14,205 bases of DNA from a virus (taxonomy: Duplodnaviria > Heunggongvirae > Uroviricota > Caudoviricetes), in IMG/VR virus record IMGVR_UViG_2541047928_000015, one strand, 5' to 3'. Under the pieces are notes generated by a model. That model saw only the letters and a list, made by a program, of their open reading frames with translations, searched no databases and had not been told where the DNA came from. A program made the position numbers and the translations under genes. Shown here piece after piece: positions 463 through 14,205 of the stretch. Numbering within the stretch: the first letter of the stretch is position 1; every line of letters begins with the position of its first letter.

Positions 463-810
463 TTGCATTTTTTAAAAAGCATCCTAAGTTCGATCTCAGT
501 GTCTATCTGGGGCCTATTTCTGTCCCATATATGCCCCAAAAAAACTCCTCAACAGATAAGTAGTTTTTTCATGGAGTTACGCGTAAAATCAATAACGGCT
601 GGAAATCATTCAATACTCGCACTATCGAAAAATTTACCAGCCAACCGCAGCACGTTCTTGCATAAGGCGTGTCTGCGGTTTTTCAACTATTCAGATACAT
701 CACTCCCATCACATTCATTCCTCCGCATCAAAGGCATATAGGCTATATCACCTTGATATTTTTCTTCTTCAGATAAAAACTGTTATCTATGTATACTTTT
801 AAACCCAATC

Positions 811-823
811 CGTGTAGAGTCTC
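811..823 (+). repeat. Direct repeat copy 1, CGTGTAGAGTCTC (extended imperfect match over ~21 bp, 801-823)
   Basis: Seen directly. Same 13-mer with one mismatch recurs at 1719-1731 in the same orientation; a gapped alignment of the extended 21-bp region gives about 17 of 21 matches. Confidence 0.4.
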
Positions 824-1002
824 TGCATAAGATAGTTTGCAGTTGCCACTTCAGCTTGCGCCATAAACCGCCTGATTTTTGCCGCCATCTGTTAGCATTC
901 CTGTATACCTGAAACGACAATGTTTATCTACGAACTTTAAGAACACCCAGGATAAAAATTGTCAACTATATCATATATAACACATTACTAATTCGAGGCT
1001 AT

Positions 1003-1116
1003 ATGAACAGCATACTGATAATCACTTCGCTCCTTATCATATTCAGCATTTTTAGTCATGCTCTAATAAAATTAGGGATTGGCATATCCAATAACCCAGA
1101 CAAAACCGATGTATAA
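1003..1116 (+). CDS. Hypothetical 37-aa hydrophobic peptide ([37 protein letters not shown]): one predicted TM helix plus polar C-tail
   Basis: ATG at 1003 preceded by GAGG (995-998); TAA at 1114-1116. Below the ORF-track size cut-off, so found by hand. AT-rich DNA yields Ile/Leu/Phe-rich ORFs by chance, hence low confidence. Confidence 0.3.
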
Positions 1117-1184
1117 GTCAACATATCCTGAATCAGACATACAATATCGCAATGAAAATCAATAATATTTTAAGGAATATATTC

Positions 1185-1418
1185 ATGAAATCAAAAGACA
1201 CCCTAAAGTGGTTCCCTGCGCAGCTTCCTGAAGTCAGAATTATCCTAGGGGATGCTGTAGTGGAAGTAGCAAAACAGGGAAGACCTATCAATACCAGAAC
1301 ATTGCTTGATTACATTGAAGGAAACATAAAGAAAAAATCATGGCTGGATAACAAAGAATTATTACAAACAGCGATATCAGTTCTTAAAGACAACCAAAAT
1401 TTAAATGGTAAAATGTAA
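1185..1418 (+). CDS. Hypothetical small protein, 77 aa from the SD-preceded ATG (88 aa if upstream ATG at 1152 is used)
   Basis: ORF track 1152..1418. The internal ATG at 1185 is preceded by AAGGAA at an 8-nt spacing, whereas the 1152 ATG has no SD. Very AT-rich coding sequence. I recognise no family. Confidence 0.45.
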   Translation: MKSKDTLKWFPAQLPEVRIILGDAVVEVAKQGRPINTRTLLDYIEGNIKKKSWLDNKELLQTAISVLKDNQNLNGKM

Positions 1419-1583
1419 TATAATAAACTTACTTTTTTATCATTTTTCCACTTTAACAACATTTTGCTCCACTTTTCCACGACCAAACAACTTGAAATCT
1501 GGTTAAAATAACACGCAACACTATTCTTCTTCCTTGAGTCCGCCCGGAACTCGAAAAACAAACCGAGTTAAAGCCATTTTTCA

Positions 1584-1597
1584 CAAAATCGATTTTG
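1584..1597. promoter_or_regulatory. 14-bp perfect palindrome CAAAATCGATTTTG, followed by a second dyad TTTTGG-GTCTCAC-CCAAAA (1594-1611); candidate operator or recombinase-binding site
   Basis: Seen directly in the 317-bp non-coding region upstream of the recombinase gene. The loop heptamer GTCTCAC recurs at 1724-1730 inside the direct-repeat copy 2. Confidence 0.3.
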
Positions 1598-1718
1598 GGT
1601 CTCACCAAAATTACGGGGTTGCATACGCATTCGTTTATTTTCGAACGTGTACATACAAACATGCACAAAAATAATCAAAATTATTTTCTGAGATGCATTA
1701 TGATATGAACACCAATTT

Positions 1719-1731
1719 CGTATAGAGTCTC
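1719..1731 (+). repeat. Direct repeat copy 2, CGTATAGAGTCTC, ending 3 nt before the recombinase start codon
   Basis: Seen directly; pairs with 811-823. Confidence 0.4.
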
Positions 1732-1734
1732 ACT

Positions 1735-2325
1735 ATGTCTCGAATTTTTGCTTACTGTCGGATATCAACGCTGGATCAGACCACCGAAAATCAACGCCGG
1801 GAAATCGAAAGTGCAGGTTTTAACATCAAATCTCAGCAAATAATCGAAGAACACATTAGCGGCTCAGCAGCAACCAGTGAGCGTCCTGGTTTTAACCGGT
1901 TGCTTGCTCGCCTGAAATGTGGTGATCAATTGATTGTGACAAAACTGGATCGCCTTGGTTGTAATGCAATGGATATCAGGAAAACAGTGGAACAACTGAC
2001 CGAAACAGGTATCAGAGTGCATTGCTTAGCATTGGGGGGCATTGACCTGACCAGTCCAACAGGAAAAATGATGATGCAAGTAATTTCAGCAGTCGCTGAA
2101 TTTGAACGAGACCTTTTACTTGAACGCACTCATTCCGGGATAGTAAGAGCCCGCGGCGCAGGGAAACGTTTTGGTCGACCACCTGTGTTAAATGAAGAAC
2201 AGAAACAGGTGGTATTCGAACGAATTAAGTCAGGTGTAAGTATAAGTGCCATTGCCCGGGAATTCAAAACCTCGCGGCAAACCATTTTAAGAGCCAAAGC
2301 AAAACTTCAGACACCTGACATATAA
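1735..2325 (+). CDS. Serine recombinase of the resolvase/invertase family (Pin/Hin/Gin-like), 196 aa
   Basis: N-terminal catalytic motif YCRISTLDQ (Ser10), DRLG motif, E..ER acidic patch, GRPP linker and C-terminal helix-turn-helix. Position beside the tail fibre genes is the classic Pin location in e14/Rac-type prophages. Only about one-third identity to Gin/PinE by eye, so invertase versus resolvase is unresolved. Confidence 0.9.
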
Positions 2326-2422
2326 AAAATAATCTCGGTGTGAGATGCTTTACGTCTTCCAAGCCCCCTTCCTTGCCGTAAATGGAAAGATACATCTAAT
2401 TATAGAATTTATATGTTTTACC

Positions 2423-2542
2423 CTACGGCAGTGCTGGCCATTCAATATCCTGTGCAGTTGACGTATCAACACGGTTCAGCAATACCCGATACTTTTTCCA
2501 TGCTTCCAGCAACGAGATTTCTTCCTCCGTTGCATATACAGC
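2423..2542 (-). pseudogene. tfa: Fossil 3-prime end of tail fibre assembly gene tfa (last 39 codons, no start codon)
   Basis: Minus-strand translation [39 protein letters not shown]-stop is nearly identical to the lambda Tfa C-terminus as I recall it (...[34 protein letters not shown]...). It is preceded in frame by TGA at 2543-2545, and upstream sequence shows no Tfa similarity in any frame I read. Confidence 0.7.
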
Positions 2543-2552
2543 TCACCTTTTT

Positions 2553-2876
2553 TCACCCACGATTAACCAACAGCCAGACCAGCAGACACGCCACCACCGG
2601 CACAGCAAAATCTATCAGGCTTGCCACATCCCAAACACGCGGATCAAAACCGCCCCACCACGGCATGTTAATCCGCTTGCAATGCCCGAACATTTCAATC
2701 CAGCGATATTCTGCCTGGGTGTGTTCCCGCGCAATGAAGAATGTACAACCGGCTATCGCCCCGTAAGCCCAGTTTCCGGTAAAAAGACCAACCAGTACCT
2801 GCGCAGCCACAGCACAAAGCGCATGAAGAAAAGGTGTTATATCCATTTTCATCCTACCCAATAAAACGGGGCGCAT
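2553..2876 (-). CDS. Hypothetical small membrane protein, 107 aa, 2-3 predicted TM segments
   Basis: ORF track. Hydrophobic stretches ITPFLHALCAVAAQVLVGLFTG / AYGAIAGCTFFIA / VASLIDFAVPVVACLLVWLLV. Starts 12 nt downstream of the orf346 stop, so probably co-transcribed. No family recognised. Confidence 0.5.
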   Translation of the reverse strand: MRPVLLGRMKMDITPFLHALCAVAAQVLVGLFTGNWAYGAIAGCTFFIAREHTQAEYRWIEMFGHCKRINMPWWGGFDPRVWDVASLIDFAVPVVACLLVWLLVNRG

Positions 2877-2887
2877 AGCCCTTAATA

Positions 2888-3928
2888 TTATTTAGACGCA
2901 AGCGTCGCCTCAATTGCAGATAATCTTTGCCTTAATTCTGCGTTTTCTTCTTCCAGTACTGTTATTCTGTCGTCTGACTCTCTGGCTACCTGAACAAGCA
3001 AGCCAGTAACACCAGAATAATCTACTGTGTAATAACGTTCACCTTCTTCACCTTCCGATCCGCTTGCACCGTCCTGATATTTCATTGCGGAACCGACAAC
3101 TTCTGGGATTGCTTCCAGAGCTTCCTGTGCAATGACACCTGCATAGGGCATACCGTTTTCTTTAAGCGTGTATGTATAGCCGTTCATTTTACGGATGCGG
3201 TCGGTTGCATTATCGATCACCTGAATGTTGTCTTTCAGATCCCGGTCGGAATGCTGGTTAAATGCGGTGGCATGACATGCACCATTAACGCTTAACATAT
3301 AGGTGTTATCGGTATTTTTCTGCGCATAGAACATATACGCGCCACCATCAGCACCAACTTCATATACAACCGGACGGGTAGAGTTACCCCACAAACTAGT
3401 AGTAGCGCCAGAATGAGCGGTCCCCTGTGTGTTTAATGTCATGGTTGACCCATGATTGGCATATTTGATTTGTAATGTGTCTGTGCAGTCAAACTTAATA
3501 AGCGCGTTACTTCCCCGCACACCATACGACATGAGACAGTTCCCCATCTTAAGGTAACCATCACTGCCTGGAAAAATTAATGTTCCGCCGTAAAGATCGC
3601 TAAAATCCCAAAAGATACCTTTTGTTCCATTGTGTGTGACAATCCTTGTCATTGTATCTTTTGTACCGTCAATATTTTTTCTGGTGTACATCTCACTATA
3701 AGCGTTTTCGGTTTCTCCTGTCTTATTTGACAAGTGAATCTTACCGCTAAATATAGTTCCAGTGGTCGGCAATGCCTTTTGATCATAGATTACATTGCAA
3801 TAACTATTCCATGTTGTTTTATTGTCTACATATGATTTTGTTGCATAGCTTCCTTGATCAGTTTTTAGTTTACTAACATCGGATTTTAGCGTTTTGATGT
3901 CATCAGGAATTACTGTTTTTGTAACCAT
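2888..3928 (-). CDS. Tail fibre / tail spike-like protein with C-terminal intramolecular chaperone auto-processing domain (peptidase S74-like), 346 aa
   Basis: C-terminal ~120 aa (SDRDLKDNIQVIDNATDRIRKMNGYTYTLKENG ... ITVLEEENAELRQRLSAIEATLASK) has the hallmark S-D-x-x-L-K-x-N-I start and terminal coiled coil of the self-cleaving chaperone domain found in phage endosialidases and the T5 L-shaped fibre. GGAG SD 9 nt upstream of the ATG, lying inside the end of orf89. Lower GC than the J gene. Confidence 0.8.
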   Translation of the reverse strand: MVTKTVIPDDIKTLKSDVSKLKTDQGSYATKSYVDNKTTWNSYCNVIYDQKALPTTGTIFSGKIHLSNKTGETENAYSEMYTRKNIDGTKDTMTRIVTHNGTKGIFWDFSDLYGGTLIFPGSDGYLKMGNCLMSYGVRGSNALIKFDCTDTLQIKYANHGSTMTLNTQGTAHSGATTSLWGNSTRPVVYEVGADGGAYMFYAQKNTDNTYMLSVNGACHATAFNQHSDRDLKDNIQVIDNATDRIRKMNGYTYTLKENGMPYAGVIAQEALEAIPEVVGSAMKYQDGASGSEGEEGERYYTVDYSGVTGLLVQVARESDDRITVLEEENAELRQRLSAIEATLASK

Positions 3929-3940
3929 TGTCTTACTCCA

Positions 3941-4210
3941 TTAAGCCCATGTCCTTACATGCTGATCTGTCGTAATGAAAGGCATTAAAGAAGATATGTT
4001 TTTACTGCTATCAACAATCCTCATGTTTACGAAAAAACCACCGCGATCAATGCCTGTACATCTTTCGTTTTCTGGCTCCTCGTAATCGATAATGCAGCCA
4101 ATAACATCAACAAGAACCCCGTTTTCTTCTTCAAGACTGAACAGGCCACTGTCATATACAATTGCGTTAAACTGTTCTCTGTTATCGAATCGTAATGTTA
4201 TATCTCGCAT
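3941..4210 (-). CDS. Hypothetical acidic 89-aa protein, translationally coupled to the side tail fibre gene (possible fibre adaptor or assembly factor)
   Basis: ATG overlaps the stf stop (TAATG on the minus strand at 4212-4208). No family recognised. Confidence 0.6.
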   Translation of the reverse strand: MRDITLRFDNREQFNAIVYDSGLFSLEEENGVLVDVIGCIIDYEEPENERCTGIDRGGFFVNMRIVDSSKNISSLMPFITTDQHVRTWA

Positions 4211-6567
4211 TATACGTATTCCTTAAGCTGCGTATCTGACAATGCTCTGTTCCAGAAACGGAGGTTTTTTATATGACCATTAAGGTGTCGTAATCCTGTC
4301 GTCGTTTGCCCCCCGATACGAATCACGGCTGCTTCACGAATATATTTCCATACTGTTTTTGTTTCAGCGCTTATATGCTTATTTGCAAATGAGCATGTCA
4401 TGCCGTCAGCCTTAACCCTGAATCCCATAACGAGATCCCTTACTCCGCATGATTCATATACACGTCGGTTAGCCCCGCCTATATCGCAATACGAATAACC
4501 GTCCTGACTGATAGTTCCAGAAGAACCAAACCCCATAATAAATGGGCCTCCGGACTGGTGATTTTCTGAATCAATGACACGCGGTGCAGCATTATGAGAA
4601 ATAAACCAGTTTTTATGGACTTCCACCATGAACGTAAAAGGCATGGTATACATATTTTTCATCAGCGGAAATTTACATAAATCTGATGCACGAGTCGCTG
4701 GCTCTGTTGTCGTTATGATGAAGGAAGTTGCACAAGCACCATACTCGAATTGCGGGGTGGTTACTTCTATCCAGTCACCTGTTGCAAAAGCTCCCACAGC
4801 TCTGTCGGCTGCAATTTGCAGCTGCGTACCAACCATTCCCCATTCTGGCAGACATTTCAGTGTTGCCTGAAAATATATCCATCCACTACCAGGGTCGATT
4901 TCAAAGTTTGCTGTTAATAGCTGGGCATTGCCACCAGTAATTTGTAGTTCATGGGTCTGTAATGACAAATAGGCGTCGCAAAGGAAGGTGTATCCTTCCG
5001 AGTTATACCGTTCAAAACGGATACGTGCGCGAACATTGAGATCACTTCTTACCCTGAACGACGCGGTAACATACGGACCTTTACTGTACTGATCATCGCC
5101 AGTCACATCTATGCCTTTGTTACCAGCAACTGTGCATATATTTCTCCCTGTTGTCGTTCCTGCTATATCGCTTCCTACCGTGAAACGTCCATATTTAAAC
5201 TCAAATTCATCTGTTGATGATGTTACAGATATACCACCGCTTTTATTCCACGCATCAGGATTAAAACTATTTACGAACATGTTTGTTCGCTGATTCTCTA
5301 TCAGCAAACCATATTTTTCAAAACGAGGAACGTTATTACCTGCCACGGTAATATGCCCGGACTTATCAATATACGTTGCAGATGAAGCCCGGCTAAATTG
5401 GCATATGCCATTAACTGGCACAGTGATTTCATCGCTGCCGATGGTTATTGTTTTATACCCCGGCGCATACCCTGTTATCGCTTCCAGAGAATCATTCAAG
5501 GGTAGCCAGATATCAGGAAGCGGAGGGACAGAAGCAGGATCAGCGGCATCTTCTGCAATCCGGGCTGCATTCTCTGCTCTTGTTGCGGCTGACGTTGCTT
5601 CTGTCTCGCTGGCTGCTGCTTTTGTTTCGCTCGCCTTTGCGTTAGTTTCACTGGTTTTTGCAGCTTTTTGGCTATTAGCTGCCGCTGTTGCAGAACCAGC
5701 TGCAGCACTCTCGCTTTCGGCTGCTGCATCCTGACTGCTTTTCGCCGCAGTTTCGCTGGCTTTGGCATTCGTTTCGCTGGTCTTCGCTGCCGTCTGGCTG
5801 GACTTTGCGTTAGTTTCACTCGTCTTCGCAGCTTTCTGGCTGTTAGCCGCAGCAGTTGCTGATCCAGCTGCTGAAGTCGCAGAACCGGCTGCCGCGCTCT
5901 CGCTTTGGGCTGCTGCAACCTGGCTGTTTTTTGCCGCAGTTTCACTGGCTTTGGCATTCGTTTCGCTGGTCTTCGCTGCCGTCTGGCTGGACTTTGCGTT
6001 GGTTTCGCTCGTCTTTGCGGCTGTCTCGCTGTTTTTCGCGTTGGTTTCTGATTTTTTGGCTGCTGTCGCGGAGTTTGCCGATGCAGTCTGCGAGGACGCT
6101 GCCGCCTGTGCGCTGTTAGCTGCATTCGTTTCTGAGGTTTTCGCCGCGTTCTTCGATGATGCCGCTGCAGTTTCGGATTTCTTTGCCACCGCTGCGCTCT
6201 GAGAGGCGGCTTCGGCGTTGCGTGCCGCTTCTTCCACCATTGCCTCAAAACGACGCAATGCCTCCGGCATGACATCATCTTCCGTCATGGCACCGAGAAA
6301 ATCATTCAGCGTACCTGGTCTGGAACCTTCATAGACGGTAATGATCCCGGCATGTGAAGGCGGAAAACCTTCAACCAGCAGGATAACGCTATACTGGCCA
6401 TACTCAACGTCCATGCTGTAACGCCCGGCTTCATCCGGATTTTCAGAGGCCACCGTGTTCACCAGTACAGTGGTGCTGTTACGCTTTGCCTTCAGTTGAA
6501 TAGTGCAGTTCTGTATTGGTTTTCCCGCACCATCTTTCAGCACACCTGAGATTTTTACTGCTGCCAT
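4210..6567 (-). CDS. stf: Side tail fibre protein: lambda Stf-like N-terminal anchor and Ala/Ser/Thr/Lys repeat shaft, non-lambda distal region ending in a ConA/LamG-like lectin domain
   Basis: N-terminus MAAVKISGVLKDGAGKPIQNCTIQLKAKRNSTTVLVNTVASENPDEAGRYSMDVEYGQYSVIL is near-identical to lambda Stf as I recall it. C-terminus ...RIGGQTTTGLRHLNGHIKNLRFWNRALSDTQLKEY matches the LamG-type signature (G-x-I-x-x-hRhWNRALS-x-x-Q/E-h). Start placed at ATG 6567 (GGAG 5 nt upstream) rather than the track's GTG at 6573, which lies inside that SD. Confidence 0.9.
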   Translation of the reverse strand: MAAVKISGVLKDGAGKPIQNCTIQLKAKRNSTTVLVNTVASENPDEAGRYSMDVEYGQYSVILLVEGFPPSHAGIITVYEGSRPGTLNDFLGAMTEDDVMPEALRRFEAMVEEAARNAEAASQSAAVAKKSETAAASSKNAAKTSETNAANSAQAAASSQTASANSATAAKKSETNAKNSETAAKTSETNAKSSQTAAKTSETNAKASETAAKNSQVAAAQSESAAAGSATSAAGSATAAANSQKAAKTSETNAKSSQTAAKTSETNAKASETAAKSSQDAAAESESAAAGSATAAANSQKAAKTSETNAKASETKAAASETEATSAATRAENAARIAEDAADPASVPPLPDIWLPLNDSLEAITGYAPGYKTITIGSDEITVPVNGICQFSRASSATYIDKSGHITVAGNNVPRFEKYGLLIENQRTNMFVNSFNPDAWNKSGGISVTSSTDEFEFKYGRFTVGSDIAGTTTGRNICTVAGNKGIDVTGDDQYSKGPYVTASFRVRSDLNVRARIRFERYNSEGYTFLCDAYLSLQTHELQITGGNAQLLTANFEIDPGSGWIYFQATLKCLPEWGMVGTQLQIAADRAVGAFATGDWIEVTTPQFEYGACATSFIITTTEPATRASDLCKFPLMKNMYTMPFTFMVEVHKNWFISHNAAPRVIDSENHQSGGPFIMGFGSSGTISQDGYSYCDIGGANRRVYESCGVRDLVMGFRVKADGMTCSFANKHISAETKTVWKYIREAAVIRIGGQTTTGLRHLNGHIKNLRFWNRALSDTQLKEYV
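5580..6125. repeat. Imperfect tandem DNA repeats (three ~120-190-bp units on a 21-bp / 7-codon periodicity) inside the stf shaft-coding region
   Basis: Seen directly: 5747-5823 is almost identical to 5936-6011, and 5630-5750 closely resembles 5800-5936. Protein shows repeating KTSETNA/KSSQTAA/KASETAA heptads. Confidence 0.7.
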
Positions 6568-6578
6568 ATCCACTCCAC

Positions 6579-6631: not shown

Positions 6632-7231
6632 TCAGAATTTATAACCGACACCCACGATGAAACCGTCAGTGCGCCAGTCGCCACTGCCGGAGCCTTCATA
6701 AGCAATATCAATGGCCACGGATTCGGTCGGGTTAAACTGCACGCCAGCTCCCCACGCCAGAGACGTGTTGCTGTGGCGATCGTCATCACTTCCGGTCAGC
6801 ACATCGTGCGTTTTCCCCTTGTTGTCAGTTACGCGGAGATAATCCCCGGAGAACGTCGAAACACGGCTGTAAGCCACACCTGCCATCGCATAAGCACTGA
6901 ACCATTCATTCACGCGTACAGACGGCCCCGCCATCATGCTGAACCAGCGGTTACGCACTGAATCTTCATGCCAGCGGGTATCGCTGTAATGCGTTTTTTG
7001 CTCATCTTTGGCATTGGCATAACTGAATGACGTCACCAGCCCCAGCGTGTCCGTAAATTCATAACGGTATTTCACGTTAATGCCCTTCAGGTCATCGTTG
7101 CCGGGCATATCAGTATGGGTCTGAAGATACCCGGCGCTTAGTGTGGACTGATGCTCTGCTGCGCTCGCTGGCGTACCAGCGGCGACCAGCCAGACTACTG
7201 TGGACAGAATAACAGCACATAATTTACGCAT
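6632..7231 (-). CDS. lom: Lom outer membrane protein (Ail/Lom/PagC beta-barrel family), signal peptide present
   Basis: 199 aa. C-terminal IAYEGSGSGDWRTDGFIVGVGYKF and internal motifs (KGINVKYRYE, SAYAMAGVA) match lambda Lom. Same position as in lambda, between J and stf. Confidence 0.95.
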   Translation of the reverse strand: MRKLCAVILSTVVWLVAAGTPASAAEHQSTLSAGYLQTHTDMPGNDDLKGINVKYRYEFTDTLGLVTSFSYANAKDEQKTHYSDTRWHEDSVRNRWFSMMAGPSVRVNEWFSAYAMAGVAYSRVSTFSGDYLRVTDNKGKTHDVLTGSDDDRHSNTSLAWGAGVQFNPTESVAIDIAYEGSGSGDWRTDGFIVGVGYKF

Positions 7232-7297: not shown

Positions 7298-10200
7298 TCA
7301 GCTGATACTGATGCCTGCGGTGGCTTTCTTCATCACCACAACCAGCAAATCGCTGATACTTGCTGTGGGATACCAGTCATTTACCAGCCATGCTGACACC
7401 GAAAACTCCAGCGTCATGTGACCGTGACCGGCAGGCATATCAATAACGCCACTGTAAATCAGCGTATTATCCAGCGCGGTACGGTTATAAATTTCAGCAC
7501 CGTTTTTCCGCACTATCAGACGGCATGAGGAGTAAATATCAGTATGCTCTCTCTCATGTTTAGCGCCGCTGAATGCCACCGCCGGAATAACAATCTGCCG
7601 GTCAAACGGCTGATCGTCATAAACCCTGACGGTAATGGTCCCTGATGGCCACCGTTCCGGTGCACGGGAGTCCCGGGGGAAAGCTTTGCCCACTGTTTTA
7701 ACGAGATCGCCTTCAATCTGGTTCGCGGACAGTTTTCCCAGAACCCGACAGTTCTCGTTAATCGTGACGTTGTTGAGCGTCCCGGAGTTCGCATTCACGT
7801 TACCGCTGATATCGGCATTTTTCGCCGTCAGCCGCCCATCCGGTGTCAGGGAAAATGCCGGTGGATTTCCACCACTGGTAATGGTGGGGGCCGTCAGGCG
7901 TTTCAGGAACACGTCGTTCATGAATATCTGATTGCCCTGCGCCACAAACATCGGCGTTTCATTCCCGTTTGCCGGGTCAATAAACGCGATACGGTTAGCG
8001 GCAACCAGAAACTGGCTCAGTTTGCCTTCCTCCGTGTCCTCCATACTGAGGCCAATACCCGCGACATAATGTTTGCCGTCTTTGGTCTGCTCAATTTTGA
8101 CAGCCCACATGGCATTCCATTTATCGTTGGCATCCTTCCACTCTTTCGAAAACTCATCCAGTCTGCTGGCGTTATCCTCCGTCAGATCGACTTTTTCCAG
8201 CAGCTCCTTGCCGAGATGGGATTCGGTTATCTTGCCTTTGAAAAAATCCAGGTAACCTTCCGCATCATCGCTCGCCCGACCGACGGACTCCACGAATGCC
8301 GATTTGCCAACGGTGTTCACACTGCGGATATAAAAGTAATAATCATGGCCCGGTTTGATATTGATACTGGCGGCTATCCAGTACAGCCCCGTGCCAAGGT
8401 AGCGGGCTGTGGTTTCAACCTGCCTGATATCGGTAATCCGCGTTTCCGAGAACCAGAACTCAAACTGTACCGTCGGATCATAAACCGCAAGATGCGGCGT
8501 GGCGGTGATCTGAAAATAGCCCGGCGTCAGCTCAATCCTCGACGGTGCTGCCGGTGCGGCAATCCGGAACGATACCGACGCCGGATCGCCCTGCTGCCCC
8601 CACGCATTTACCGCCCGGACTGTCAGCCTGTAGTTCCCCAGCGCCAGCTGCGTGAAGCGGTATGTGGTTTCCGCCGTCCGGGCCGTGCTGACCAGCCGCT
8701 CACTGCCGTCATCCGCTGCCACGGTCAGGCGAAGCATAAAGCTCACCCCCTTCACCACCTTCGGCGTATCCCAGCGTGCCAGCACCTGATACTCCCCGCT
8801 GTCTGCGGTGACTTCGGCAGTCAGGTGCTGCACCGCTGGCGGCGTGACACCATTCACCGTGCCGCTCTGGTCGCCGTCAAAGTGCGCCCCGTTATCCACG
8901 ATGGCTTCTTTTTCCGGTACATGCTGCACGGCGGTGATGGCATACGTGCCGTCGTCGTTCTCACGGATACTCACGCAGCGGAACAGGCGCTGGCGCAGCG
9001 TCGGCAGCTTCAGCCCCCATACGCTGTATTCAGCAACGCCGTCAGGAACACGGCTCACTTTCACCTTCACGCCGTCGGTGACGGACTGGACCTCCACGCT
9101 GACCGGATTGCCACTTCCGTCAACCAGGCTTATCAGCGTGGTACCGGAGGATGGCAGCGTGATTTCACGGTCGAGCGTCAGCGTCCGGGTCTGGCTGTTC
9201 ACAGCCAGCACGCGCCCGCCGATGCTGATCCCCGCATAGTCATCATCGCAGATTTCAATAACATCCCCCGGCACATGGCGAAGCCCTTCGGCACCCACGC
9301 TGAAATCCACGGTCTGCGTCTCCAGCAGCTCCGTTTTAATCAGCCACAGCCCGGCGCGGTGTGCCTGCCCCCGACTGGTACAGCCAAAGGCATCCATCTT
9401 CGTGACGTTACGACCGTAACGGGCAATGGCCTGCGTGTCCTCCACAAGCTCTGTCGCCGTCTCCCAGCCGTTATCCGGGTCAATCCAGTTCACCTCAACG
9501 GCATTATGACGGTCCTTCAGGGCGCTGAAGCTGTAGCGGAACGGCGCGCCATCATCCGGCATCACCACATTACTGCGGTTATAGGTCCACACCTTATCCG
9601 ATGGCCGGTCCTGCACGAACGTCAGCGTCTGCCCGTTCCATACCGGCATACAGCGCATCGCCGAGCAGAAATCACTGAGCACATCCCACGCCTTGCGCTG
9701 TGTGGTCAGGTACGCATTACAGGCGATGCGCGGCTCCGTGCCGCCAAAGCCGTCCGGCACCGACTGGTCGCAGTACTGGCCGATGACATACAGCGCCCAT
9801 TTATCCACATCCGCCGCACCAAGACGTTTCCCCATGCCGTAGCGCGGATGGGTCAGCATATCCCACAGACACCAGGCCATGTTGTTGCTGTATGCCGGTT
9901 TTAACGTTCCGTCCCAGATACCGCTGTATTGTCGCGTCTGCGGGTTATAGTTCGACGGCACCTGCAGAATGCGCCCGCGAAGATGATAATTACGACTCAC
10001 CTGCTGACTGCCGAACTGCTCCGAGTCCACCTGTACGCCAACCAGTGCCGTGTTCGGGTAGCACTGTTTCACATCGATGATTTCGGTGTATGACGACCAG
10101 AGCGTTTTGTTCTGCAGCTGGTCTGTGGTGCTGTCCGGCGTCATCCTGCGCATCCGGATATTAAACGGGCGCGGCGGCAGGTTATCCACCACCACCGAGG

Positions 10201-10693
10201 CCAGATACTGCGAGGTGGTTTTGCCCTTAATGGTGATGTCTTTTTCCGTCACCCAGCCACCGTTACGCTGTATCTGAACCAGCAGGCGGACTTCCGACGG
10301 ATTCCTGTCACCCTTTGAGGTGGTTTCCACCAGTGCCTGCACGCCGAAAGTAAAGCGCAGACGGTCGATGTTTGCCGACGTGATGGTGCGGGTGATCGGC
10401 ATGTCATATTTCACTTCCATACCCAGCACCGTCTCGGAGCCGGAGGATTCAAACCCCTCCGGCGGAGTCTGCTCCTGCTCACCTGCCCGGAACACCGCCG
10501 TAACACCGGAAATGTTGGTATTCCCTTCACTGTCCAGCACCGGCGTACTGTTCAGCAGCACGCTTTTTAACCCATCCACCGGACCTTCAATCGGCCCTTC
10601 GCTGATGACATCGATCACACTCAGCAACTGCGTGGATTTCAGGTTGTCCTTCGCTTCGCGCGGGGTATGCCCCTTACTGCTGCCTTTACCCAT
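7298..10693 (-). CDS. J: Tail tip host specificity protein J (central tail fibre), 1131 aa
   Basis: Length and sequence along the whole protein resemble lambda J, including the C-terminal end ...[32 protein letters not shown]. Confidence 0.97.
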
Positions 10694-12770: not shown

Positions 12771-13099
12771 CAGTTCACCACCTGTTCAAACTCTGCGCTG
12801 AACTCAACACGCAGCATACTGACCCGCGACGACCATTTTGCGCAGGTCACCTTTATCTGCCGCCACTCATAAGGCGGCGTCCACAGAAAGGATTTCCAGC
12901 CCCCGTGCTCTTCCAGAAACGACTCCAGTACCGTGGCCTCCTCACGGGGGACAGAAAGCGTCACGCTGTACGTTTTCAGGTTGGCATTCAGCCCGGCAGG
13001 CGCTCGCTGAGAATAGCCATCACCAAAGCGCACCTTTCTTACAGAAGGGACCGAAGCCACATCCATACCGGGTTTCACTTTCCAGCGGAAGGTCTTCAT
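12770..13099 (-). CDS. M: Tail tip protein M, 109 aa
   Basis: Size and position match lambda M; ATGA overlap with the H stop. Confidence 0.95.
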   Translation of the reverse strand: MKTFRWKVKPGMDVASVPSVRKVRFGDGYSQRAPAGLNANLKTYSVTLSVPREEATVLESFLEEHGGWKSFLWTPPYEWRQIKVTCAKWSSRVSMLRVEFSAEFEQVVN

Positions 13100-14205
13100 C
13101 GTCCACCTCCGGAGAACAGGCCACCATCACGCATCTGTGTCTGAATTTCATCACGGGCACCCTTGCGGGCCATGTCATACACCGCCTTCAGAGCAGCCGG
13201 ACCTATCTGCCCGTTCGTGCCGTCGTTGTTAATCACCACATGGTTATTCTGCTCAAACTTCCCGGACGCCTGCGACCGGCTGTCCGCCAGGCTGCCCGGT
13301 GTACCGACATAACCACCGGTGGCATAGCCGCGCATCAGCCGGTAGAGATTCCCCACGCCAATCCGGCTGGTTGCCTCCTTCGTGAAGACAAATTCACCAC
13401 GGTGAACAATCCCCGCTGGCTCATATTTGCCGCCGGTTCCCGTAAATCCCCCGGTTGCAAAATGGAATTTCGCCGCAGCGGCCTGAATGGCTGTACCGCC
13501 TGACACTGATGCGCCACCACCGGCAGCACCGCCAATGACGCTGCCGATACTCCCGACAATCCCCACCATTGCCTGCTTAAGCAGAATTTCTGTCATCATG
13601 GACAGCACGGAACGGGTGAAGCTGCGCCAGTTCTGCTCACTGCCGGTCAGCATCGCCGCCATATTCTGTGCAATTCCATCAAAGGTCTGCGTGGCTGCAC
13701 TTTTTACCTGCGACATACTGTCCGTGGCGCTCTCTTCCCACTCACTCCAGCCGGACTTCAGGCCTGCCATCCAGTTCCCGCGAAGCTGGTCTTCAGCCGC
13801 CCAGGTCTTTTTCTGCTCTGACATGACGTTATTCAGCGCCAGCGGATTATCGCCATACTCCTCCTTCAGGCGCTGTTCCGTGGCTTCCTTCGCTGCCTGC
13901 CGGTCAGTCAGCCCCCGGCTTTTCGCATCAATGGCGGCCCGTTTTGCCCGTTGCTGCTGTGCGAATTTATCCGCCTGCTGCGCCAGCGCGTTCAGGTGCT
14001 CCTGATACGTGACCTTATCGCCAAGTGCAGCCAGCTGGCGTTTGTACTCCAGCGTCTCATCTTTATGCGCCAGCAGGGATTTCTCCTGTGCGGACAGCTG
14101 GCGACGTTGCGCCGCCTCCTCCAGTACCGCGAACTGACTCTCCGCCTTCCACAAATCCCGGCGCTGCTGGCTGATTTTCTCATTTGCTCCGGCATGCTTC
14201 TCCAG
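13096..14205 (-). CDS. H: Tail tape measure protein H, C-terminal ~369 codons (5-prime end lies beyond the window)
   Basis: The frame is open from 14154 to the window edge at 14205 (I translated it by hand and found no stop), so the track's start at 14154 is only the first in-window start codon. The Gly-rich C-terminal region resembles the lambda H C-terminus. Confidence 0.9.
   Translation of the reverse strand: MEKHAGANEKISQQRRDLWKAESQFAVLEEAAQRRQLSAQEKSLLAHKDETLEYKRQLAALGDKVTYQEHLNALAQQADKFAQQQRAKRAAIDAKSRGLTDRQAAKEATEQRLKEEYGDNPLALNNVMSEQKKTWAAEDQLRGNWMAGLKSGWSEWEESATDSMSQVKSAATQTFDGIAQNMAAMLTGSEQNWRSFTRSVLSMMTEILLKQAMVGIVGSIGSVIGGAAGGGASVSGGTAIQAAAAKFHFATGGFTGTGGKYEPAGIVHRGEFVFTKEATSRIGVGNLYRLMRGYATGGYVGTPGSLADSRSQASGKFEQNNHVVINNDGTNGQIGPAALKAVYDMARKGARDEIQTQMRDGGLFSGGGR

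Follow-up and report, generated by a model that had tools for sequence, protein, structure and literature searches.

A small gene follows a tail fibre gene in a lambdoid prophage

We analysed a 14,205-nucleotide (nt) stretch of viral DNA (IMG/VR record IMGVR_UViG_2541047928_000015), hereafter the window, which comprises the tail end of a lambdoid prophage of E. coli with its late genes read from the minus strand. Our subject is a small gene that lies directly 3' of a distal tail fibre gene and encodes a predicted membrane protein of 97 amino acids (aa), a member of the family PHROG 1443, called 'Ybl63' in UniProt. The gene and the features next to it are listed below, in the direction of reading.

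2888-3928, minus strand: distal tail fibre, 346 aa, with a C-terminal Peptidase_S74 intramolecular chaperone (Pfam PF13884, E = 6e-14; phrog_4563 tail fibre, E = 5e-208); the upstream neighbour
2860-2881, minus strand: decayed GC hairpin and U-run between the fibre gene and the 97-aa gene (comparison with relatives, folding)
2852-2855, minus strand: Shine-Dalgarno sequence AGGA, 5 nt 5' of ATG 2846 (sequence read)
2553-2846, minus strand: coding sequence, stop codon included, of the predicted 97-aa membrane protein (RefSeq, phrog_1443, homologue alignment, ratio of nonsynonymous to synonymous substitution rates (dN/dS), AlphaFold2)
2477-2855, minus strand: DNA block in common with phage 21-type lambdoid phages, ~93-94% identity (megablast)
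2423-2533, minus strand: C-terminal remnant of tfa (tail fibre assembly), 3' of the 97-aa gene (RefSeq pseudogene in an identical copy; sequence read)

The initial annotation had placed a 107-aa gene here, 12 nt after the fibre gene and in the same orientation. An open reading frame (ORF) of 107 codons is indeed present at 2553-2876, 3' of the 346-aa fibre gene and on the minus strand like the fibre genes, but its start was misplaced. From comparison with its relatives, the true start is ATG 2846, which gives 97 aa and a distance of 41 nt from the fibre stop codon; even the upstream ATG lies 11 nt, not 12, past the TAA of the fibre gene. An identical copy in RefSeq is annotated as 2553-2846, positions 1-96 (of 97) of the PHROG 1443 profile pair with residues 11-106 of the 107-aa ORF (E = 1.1e-57), and homologues mostly begin at, or a few residues from, a conserved Asp-2 ('MD...'). 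Where ATG 2846 occurs in other genomic contexts, it is preceded by AGGAGG at the same distance and by an in-frame stop codon. The ATG at 2876 (2874-2876), on the other hand, is specific to the window and missing in relatives, which at that site have the loop of a GGGGC/GCCCC hairpin followed by a U-run. This sequence, which reads GGGGCcgagcGCCCCgttttatt, folds with -14.6 kcal/mol (z -1.8); in the window the hairpin is reduced to a 4-bp stem (z -0.5). One indel or substitution both decayed the window hairpin and created the spurious upstream ATG. We also noted a 'MKMD' double start in the window's fibre context, which is not conserved elsewhere.

The encoded protein belongs to a widespread, strongly conserved family

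By sequence, the protein is a member of PHROG 1443, a family of stand-alone proteins of ~95-100 aa with three predicted helices. All residues of the family signature H...GRE..QAE...W...D..P are found in it, the near-invariant positions being H8, G-R40-E41-x-x-Q44-A-E46, W72, D79 and P83. Searches yielded 571 homologues at 90% clustering and 442 clusters at 50% identity, the latter made up entirely of stand-alone proteins, ~60-150 aa long, with no fusion among them. Among close homologues D2, H8, Q16, G29, R40, E41, Q44-I50, R58, M61, P62, W64-D68, W72 and D79 are invariant, while over 89 sequences reaching down to 30% identity R40, E41 and W72 remain invariant and H8, Q44, A45, E46 and P83 are at least 90% conserved. 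From E. coli to Comamonas and Aeromonas there is no change in the central loop, AREHTQAEYRWI..FG.GKR.NMPWWGGFD. Against other copies dN/dS is 0.14-0.25 wherever dS is measurable, synonymous sites being saturated between genera. Judged by these substitution patterns, the 97-aa ORF is a genuine gene under purifying selection.

The phage 21 protein (CPT_21_24, 'putative membrane protein') is 92.8% identical to that of the window and is encoded in the same place, after the side tail fibre module, with nothing material different. The window allele carries Cys56 (codon 2679-2681, minus strand) where at least 90% of homologues have Gly; this allele is common, its identical-protein cluster having been seen on 718 contigs.

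DNA of the gene is present in 4052 of 5426 complete E. coli genomes, at a median of two places per genome, and in 67 sequenced phages, phage 21 among them. Protein-level matches comprise 74 phage records and 40 plasmids, mostly phage-plasmids. The family is already catalogued and is uncharacterised: source databases call its members 'hypothetical protein', 'putative membrane protein' or 'Ybl63', the phage 21 curators' annotation, HHpred included, gave no function, and we found no functional study in the literature on Ybl63, on phage 21 annotation or on small membrane proteins beside fibre or tailspike genes. The papers on Tai and SNIPE were checked and are unrelated to the 97-aa protein. Nor did the protein match anything in Pfam (E<0.1), NCBIfam or PADLOC; sequence searches of the PDB, with the single protein and with a profile, returned nothing, fold searches likewise found no characterised match, and a database search seeded with the distant member from phiHAP-1 yielded only unnamed proteins without Pfam domains.

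When 89 diverse members were compared with Pfam at E<=5, only scattered sub-threshold matches were obtained, none of them recurrent: the N-terminal transmembrane hairpin of PhoR in 7 of the 89 (best E = 0.003), VirB3 in 4 and Phage_holin_8 in 1. We judged these matches compositional and did not accept them as identities. One Aeromonas member bears the UniRef name 'prolipoprotein diacylglyceryl transferase', which we consider an annotation artefact; Pfam includes an Lgt family, yet the name is backed by no Pfam match at E<=0.1.

Although carried by roughly three quarters of the complete E. coli genomes, and by the classic laboratory phage 21, the gene has no detectable characterised relatives. 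Working out what it does would annotate thousands of prophage genes, and a new mechanism of exclusion or a new minimal membrane enzyme might come to light. The comparative pattern of this very common 'hypothetical protein' is unusually clean, which makes it directly testable.

Family members lie directly 3' of receptor-binding genes in very different phages

The placement of the gene beside fibre genes, pointed out in the initial annotation, proved to be real and far more general. Family members ride directly 3' of genes for tail fibres or tailspikes in phages whose architecture differs widely, and the linkage spans five types: lambdoid, P22-like, P2/HP1-like, SSU5-like and Kuttervirus-like. 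The gene is thus retained beside receptor-binding genes in sipho-, myo- and podoviruses and in four proteobacterial classes. The contexts are as follows, each with what lies upstream of the family member.

Lambdoid phages (this window, phage 21, Tritos): side fibres
JEP4 (P22-like): tailspike, with an ATGA overlap between the gene and the tailspike stop codon; the gene lies before int
611R6 (P22-like): tailspike and O-acetylase
Leclercia and Aeromonas HP1-like prophages: fibre, stop and start abutting or overlapping; more tail genes follow
phiHAP-1: tfa, overlapped; the sheath gene is next
Citrobacter: pectate-lyase tailspike
E. coli prophage: GDSL-esterase protein; a lysis cassette follows
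160-kb Salmonella contig: tailspike genes on both sides
Desulfovibrio, Chelativorans, Comamonas and Pantoea: tail proteins
SSU5-like phage-plasmid: the same S74 fibre as in the window

In the lambdoid copies, tfa is cut to a remnant just 3' of the 97-aa gene.

We compared 80 viral contigs whose proteins are 90-100% identical. The gene upstream encodes a 227-aa fibre in 38 of them, the 346-aa fibre in 22 and a 92-aa protein in 17, and close homologues are also found after P22-type tailspikes. Because 90-100% identical proteins follow at least three different distal genes, the protein does not co-vary with the receptor-binding domain or, by extension, with receptor specificity.

Some copies stand away from fibres and others have decayed

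The gene is also able to stand alone, at syntenic sites in bacterial chromosomes. Copies of this kind, with no phage genes around them, were found after the pirin gene in at least four Aeromonas species, after ligA at four sphingomonad loci, and in five Leclercia genomes. The Aeromonas rivipollensis orthologue (L003, 8001-11645) follows pirin and faces, in convergent orientation, a RIO1/kinase-like gene and two genes for lipid A acyltransferases. A further copy, in the P1-like phage-plasmid p1_000533 (L164, 2680-4555), is far from any fibre gene. There, the family member is part of a tight, partly overlapping four-gene operon of uncharacterised proteins (with PHROGs 8805 and 1258, then a 256-aa protein), and this operon lies upstream of hot, humD and phd-doc.

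In two phages only a decayed remnant is left: in the virulent siphovirus HC6 (L078, 3965-4120) it follows a working S74-type fibre gene, and in the Kuttervirus KFSST3 (L083, 3480-3605) it follows a tailspike gene. Both remnants are truncated or frameshifted and unannotated; apparently, they came in with the fibre cassette and then decayed. Since HC6 and KFSST3 keep only remnants beside their fibre or spike, fibre function does not require the protein.

The jumbo Aeromonas phage AVP1, by contrast with these two, has an intact 87-aa member (L079, 3917-4180) between genes for a 1122-aa protein (539-3907) and a 758-aa protein. The former is annotated as 'putative DNA helicase/terminase', and we read it as a terminase with an intein; the latter has no PHROG match and may be a tailspike.

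The gene appears to depend on late-gene transcription

A megablast search with window positions 2400-3000 as the query gave matches that span query positions 78-456, i.e., the shared block 2477-2855. This block holds the ribosome-binding site, the coding sequence and 76 nt of 3' flank, without an upstream promoter region. Because it begins 9 nt 5' of ATG 2846, the gene would carry no portable promoter of its own, and no promoter-like site was seen directly upstream of the gene in the window. The GC content of the 97-aa gene (52.7%) differs from that of the two genes upstream (39-42%), hence the region is mosaic. In three contexts (the HP1-like prophages, phiHAP-1 and JEP4) the gene is translationally coupled to, or overlaps with, late genes. 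Such junctions show, at the level of sequence, an arrangement in which the gene would be read through from the late genes or translationally coupled to them. Given this coupling and the missing promoter, expression from the prophage is not indicated.

The protein is predicted to span the membrane three times

Hydrophobic segments are apparent in the sequence at residues 4-23, 26-39 and 74-94. An AlphaFold2 model built from 43 sequences (mean predicted local distance difference test score 92) has helices at 4-23, 26-53 and 74-96, with a 20-residue loop after helix 2. The two or three transmembrane helices suggested by the initial annotation are thus predicted to be three, and the model is that of a small polytopic inner-membrane protein.

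As for its orientation, the count of lysine plus arginine over 313 members is 5.8 on the side of the N-terminus and loop and 1.0 on the other side, and the C-terminal tail past helix 3 has a median length of 3 residues, with 0 K/R. By the positive-inside rule, the N-terminus and the conserved loop are most likely cytoplasmic and the C-terminus outside; according to TMHMM and SignalP, as quoted for phage 21 in its record, the loop would instead be periplasmic. A cleaved signal peptide is argued against by the acidic 'MD' N-terminus, which offers no positively charged signal n-region, and by the invariant H8. A lipobox was not found either: the only early Cys (Cys11) is preceded by Leu at -1, and the family does not conserve it. 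Whichever topology holds, the part of the protein outside the membrane amounts to a loop of ~34 residues hugging it. From the helix geometry of the model, we infer that the N-terminus, H8, R40-E46 and D79 are on the same membrane face and would form one polar pocket at the interface.

A possible accessory protein acting on a conserved component of the host membrane

Three features, namely the strict position beside receptor-binding genes, the invariant polar motif and the stand-alone chromosomal copies, together point to a conserved target in the host inner membrane. We tentatively favour, while giving it somewhat less than an even chance, the interpretation that the 97-aa protein is an autonomous accessory inner-membrane protein which acts on a conserved host membrane component and possibly brings about general entry exclusion. 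It would work without a phage partner. The conserved polar pocket (H8, R40, E41, Q44, E46, D79, W72), at one membrane interface and most likely on the cytoplasmic face, would bind a conserved host membrane component or a lipid-linked molecule. Our guess at the benefit is a general change in the inner membrane that might hinder the entry of further phage genomes, i.e., exclusion of the type of HK97 gp15, P22 SieA or T4 Imm and not Cor/Llp receptor masking. Among phage-borne proteins of this sort, DNA-entry exclusion is the outcome with the best precedent. HK97 gp15, a moron inside the tail gene cluster, and T4 Imm both exclude at the DNA-entry step. Like them and like SieA, the 97-aa protein is a small phage-encoded accessory protein that is predicted to be polytopic in the inner membrane. 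P22 SieA (162-164 aa, three predicted transmembrane domains) is produced by the prophage and prevents the injection of DNA (PMC10883804). The 97-aa gene is apparently without its own promoter, and its invariant loop and chromosomal orthologues also set it apart.

Several observations weigh against this proposal. The missing promoter and the coupling to late genes speak against expression in the lysogen. Intact copies are carried by apparently virulent phages, AVP1 and the 160-kb multi-tailspike Salmonella contig, so that any role is not limited to protecting lysogens; a lysogeny-specific role, which the decay in virulent phages might have suggested, is weakened by the same copies. No similarity to a known superinfection exclusion (Sie) or defence protein was found in Pfam, NCBIfam, PADLOC, the PDB or PHROG annotations. 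The topology in the phage 21 record (2 transmembrane domains, N-in, C-in, by TMHMM, plus a SignalP signal peptide) would place the loop in the periplasm. Lastly, Sie proteins diverge fast, SieA types being only ~24% identical (PMC10883804), whereas the loop of the 97-aa protein is invariant across proteobacterial classes. In this respect the loop is more reminiscent of an enzyme, or of a protein that binds a universal ligand, and the invariance of the pocket and the missing promoter suit an enzyme or ligand site at least as well as they suit a Sie protein.

The protein might, then, be a minimal membrane enzyme or lipid-phosphate binder that modifies one of the lipid-linked precursors of the envelope (undecaprenyl-phosphate-linked glycans, phospholipid or lipid A precursors). 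Surface polysaccharides would thereby change in general, a conversion function travelling with polysaccharide-specific tailspikes. The invariant His, Arg, Glu, Gln and Asp residues, which are predicted to cluster at one membrane interface, would fit, as would conservation of an extreme degree typical of catalytic or ligand sites. DgkA (121 aa, 3 transmembrane segments) is a precedent for enzymes so small. Enzymatic tailspikes are frequent neighbours (pectate-lyase fold, GDSL esterase, S74 type, P22 type), and the Aeromonas copy adjoins lipid A acyltransferase genes. In P22-like phages the slot between tailspike and int is occupied by gtrABC (P22) and oac (Sf6); JEP4 and 611R6 have the family member in this slot, beside an O-acetylase in 611R6. 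The 97-aa gene differs from those modules in being a single late-strand gene that overlaps the tailspike stop codon, without partner transferase genes, and no GtrA, glycosyltransferase or acyltransferase domain was detected in the protein (Pfam E<0.1) or recurred among the 89 members. Fold and sequence searches match no enzyme, the Stf-type fibres of phage 21 are not known depolymerases, and sphingomonads, which lack lipopolysaccharide, retain a copy. We consider such an enzyme unlikely, and slightly less likely again a more specific version, in which a three-helix module of ~97 aa, its invariant His/Arg/Glu/Gln/Asp pocket at the cytoplasmic membrane interface, would be carried beside receptor-binding genes by phages of many architectures, would re-tune a universal lipid-linked envelope pathway and would have been domesticated by Aeromonas, Leclercia and sphingomonads. 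A somewhat better prospect, though still a doubtful one, is that the gene is a hitch-hiker with no role specific to phages, a captured host-type small membrane protein gene retained chiefly because of its permissive slot, where it also serves as a conserved 3' homology arm for swaps of fibre cassettes. Syntenic chromosomal copies in three lineages, decay in some phages, the contrast between the gene's high DNA identity and its mosaic flanks, and its GC content relative to its neighbours are consistent with this idea; purifying selection on the protein in phage copies, retention beside receptor-binding genes in three virion types and four proteobacterial classes, and carriage by 4052 of 5426 E. 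coli genomes at a median of 2 copies are not what it would predict. More improbable than either of these is a role in lysis, as a holin, antiholin or timing modulator at the end of the late operon. With ~100 aa and three helices the protein does resemble class I holins such as lambda S105, its 'MKMD' start recalls the double start of lambda S107/S105, T7, T4 and phi29 have holin genes after their fibre genes, and one of the 89 members weakly matches Phage_holin_8. Moreover, in a Comamonas prophage (overlapping) and an E. coli prophage the gene is directly 5' of holin-like genes, followed by endolysin and spanin genes. However, this adjacency is limited to some Comamonas and E. coli prophages, which possess their own holins, and lambdoid carriers own complete lysis cassettes elsewhere; in the window, no lysis genes in the ORF list adjoin the 97-aa gene. 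Only ~3 residues follow helix 3, in place of the charged C-terminal domain of class I holins, the conserved polar loop does not resemble holins, the double start lacks conservation, and a lethal protein would hardly be expected to have stable chromosomal orthologues.

The two remaining explanations draw on the fibre itself, and we regard both as very improbable. According to the initial annotation, the protein would block the cognate receptor by analogy with Cor (phi80, N15, HK022, T1) and Llp (T5), which are outer-membrane lipoproteins specific for FhuA, matched to the receptor of their phage, and encoded beside receptor-binding genes. The position of the 97-aa gene does resemble that of cor and llp, but the analogy goes little further: the same protein follows unrelated fibre tips and tailspikes, it is predicted to be a helical inner-membrane protein with neither lipobox nor signal n-region nor a conserved Cys11, its ~34 extramembrane residues, probably cytoplasmic, could not reach an outer-membrane receptor, and chromosomal orthologues exist without phage genes. 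We therefore disfavour masking or inactivation of the receptor of the adjacent fibre. Similarly, the location immediately 3' of a fibre gene, with translational coupling to it and with tfa reduced to a remnant just downstream in lambdoid copies, might suggest a factor for fibre assembly or maturation in the slot of Tfa/gpG-type chaperones. Those chaperones are soluble and co-vary with the fibre tip that needs them, unlike the predicted integral membrane protein here, which moreover stays constant while fibre tips vary; the fibres and spikes of HC6 and KFSST3 work beside a decayed remnant, and the P1-like plasmid and chromosomal copies have no fibre gene nearby.

Other features of the window

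The remaining genes of the window are those of a lambdoid tail region and of the adjoining prophage end:

13096-14154, minus strand: end of the tape-measure gene, then M, L, K and I
7298-10693, minus strand: J
6632-7231, minus strand: lom
4210-6573, minus strand: side tail fibre, N-terminal/proximal part, 787 aa (ORF list; RefSeq 'prophage tail fiber N-terminal domain-containing protein')
3941-4210, minus strand: 89-aa PHROG 1361 protein (PHROG function: unknown), which accompanies the Stf-type fibre gene (PHROG match)
1735-2325, plus strand: pin-type invertase
1152-1418, plus strand: ydfK

The 89-aa PHROG 1361 protein is always found with an Stf-type fibre gene, whose stop codon its gene overlaps (phage 21, Tritos, PhiR49_1 and the SSU5-like plasmid); the protein might serve the fibre as an adaptor or chaperone. 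The intact pin-type serine invertase gene (1735-2325, plus strand) stands beside the bare C-terminal remnant of tfa (2423-2533, minus strand). As the alternative fibre tips are gone, the pair looks like a degenerate invertible fibre segment. At the left end of the window, the 5' part of malX (phosphotransferase system maltose transporter IICB) breaks off near nt 388 and is fused to the prophage-end genes ynfT and ydfK (window 1-~388, plus strand, on to 1150), a junction common to only 1 of the 5426 complete E. coli genomes. In the 787-aa fibre gene, positions ~5500-6200 (minus strand) consist of long tandem repeats rich in Ala, Ser, Thr and Lys (…AAKTSETNAKSSQTAAKTSETNAKASETAAK…), and these repeats give rise to many long spurious ORFs in other frames and on both strands.

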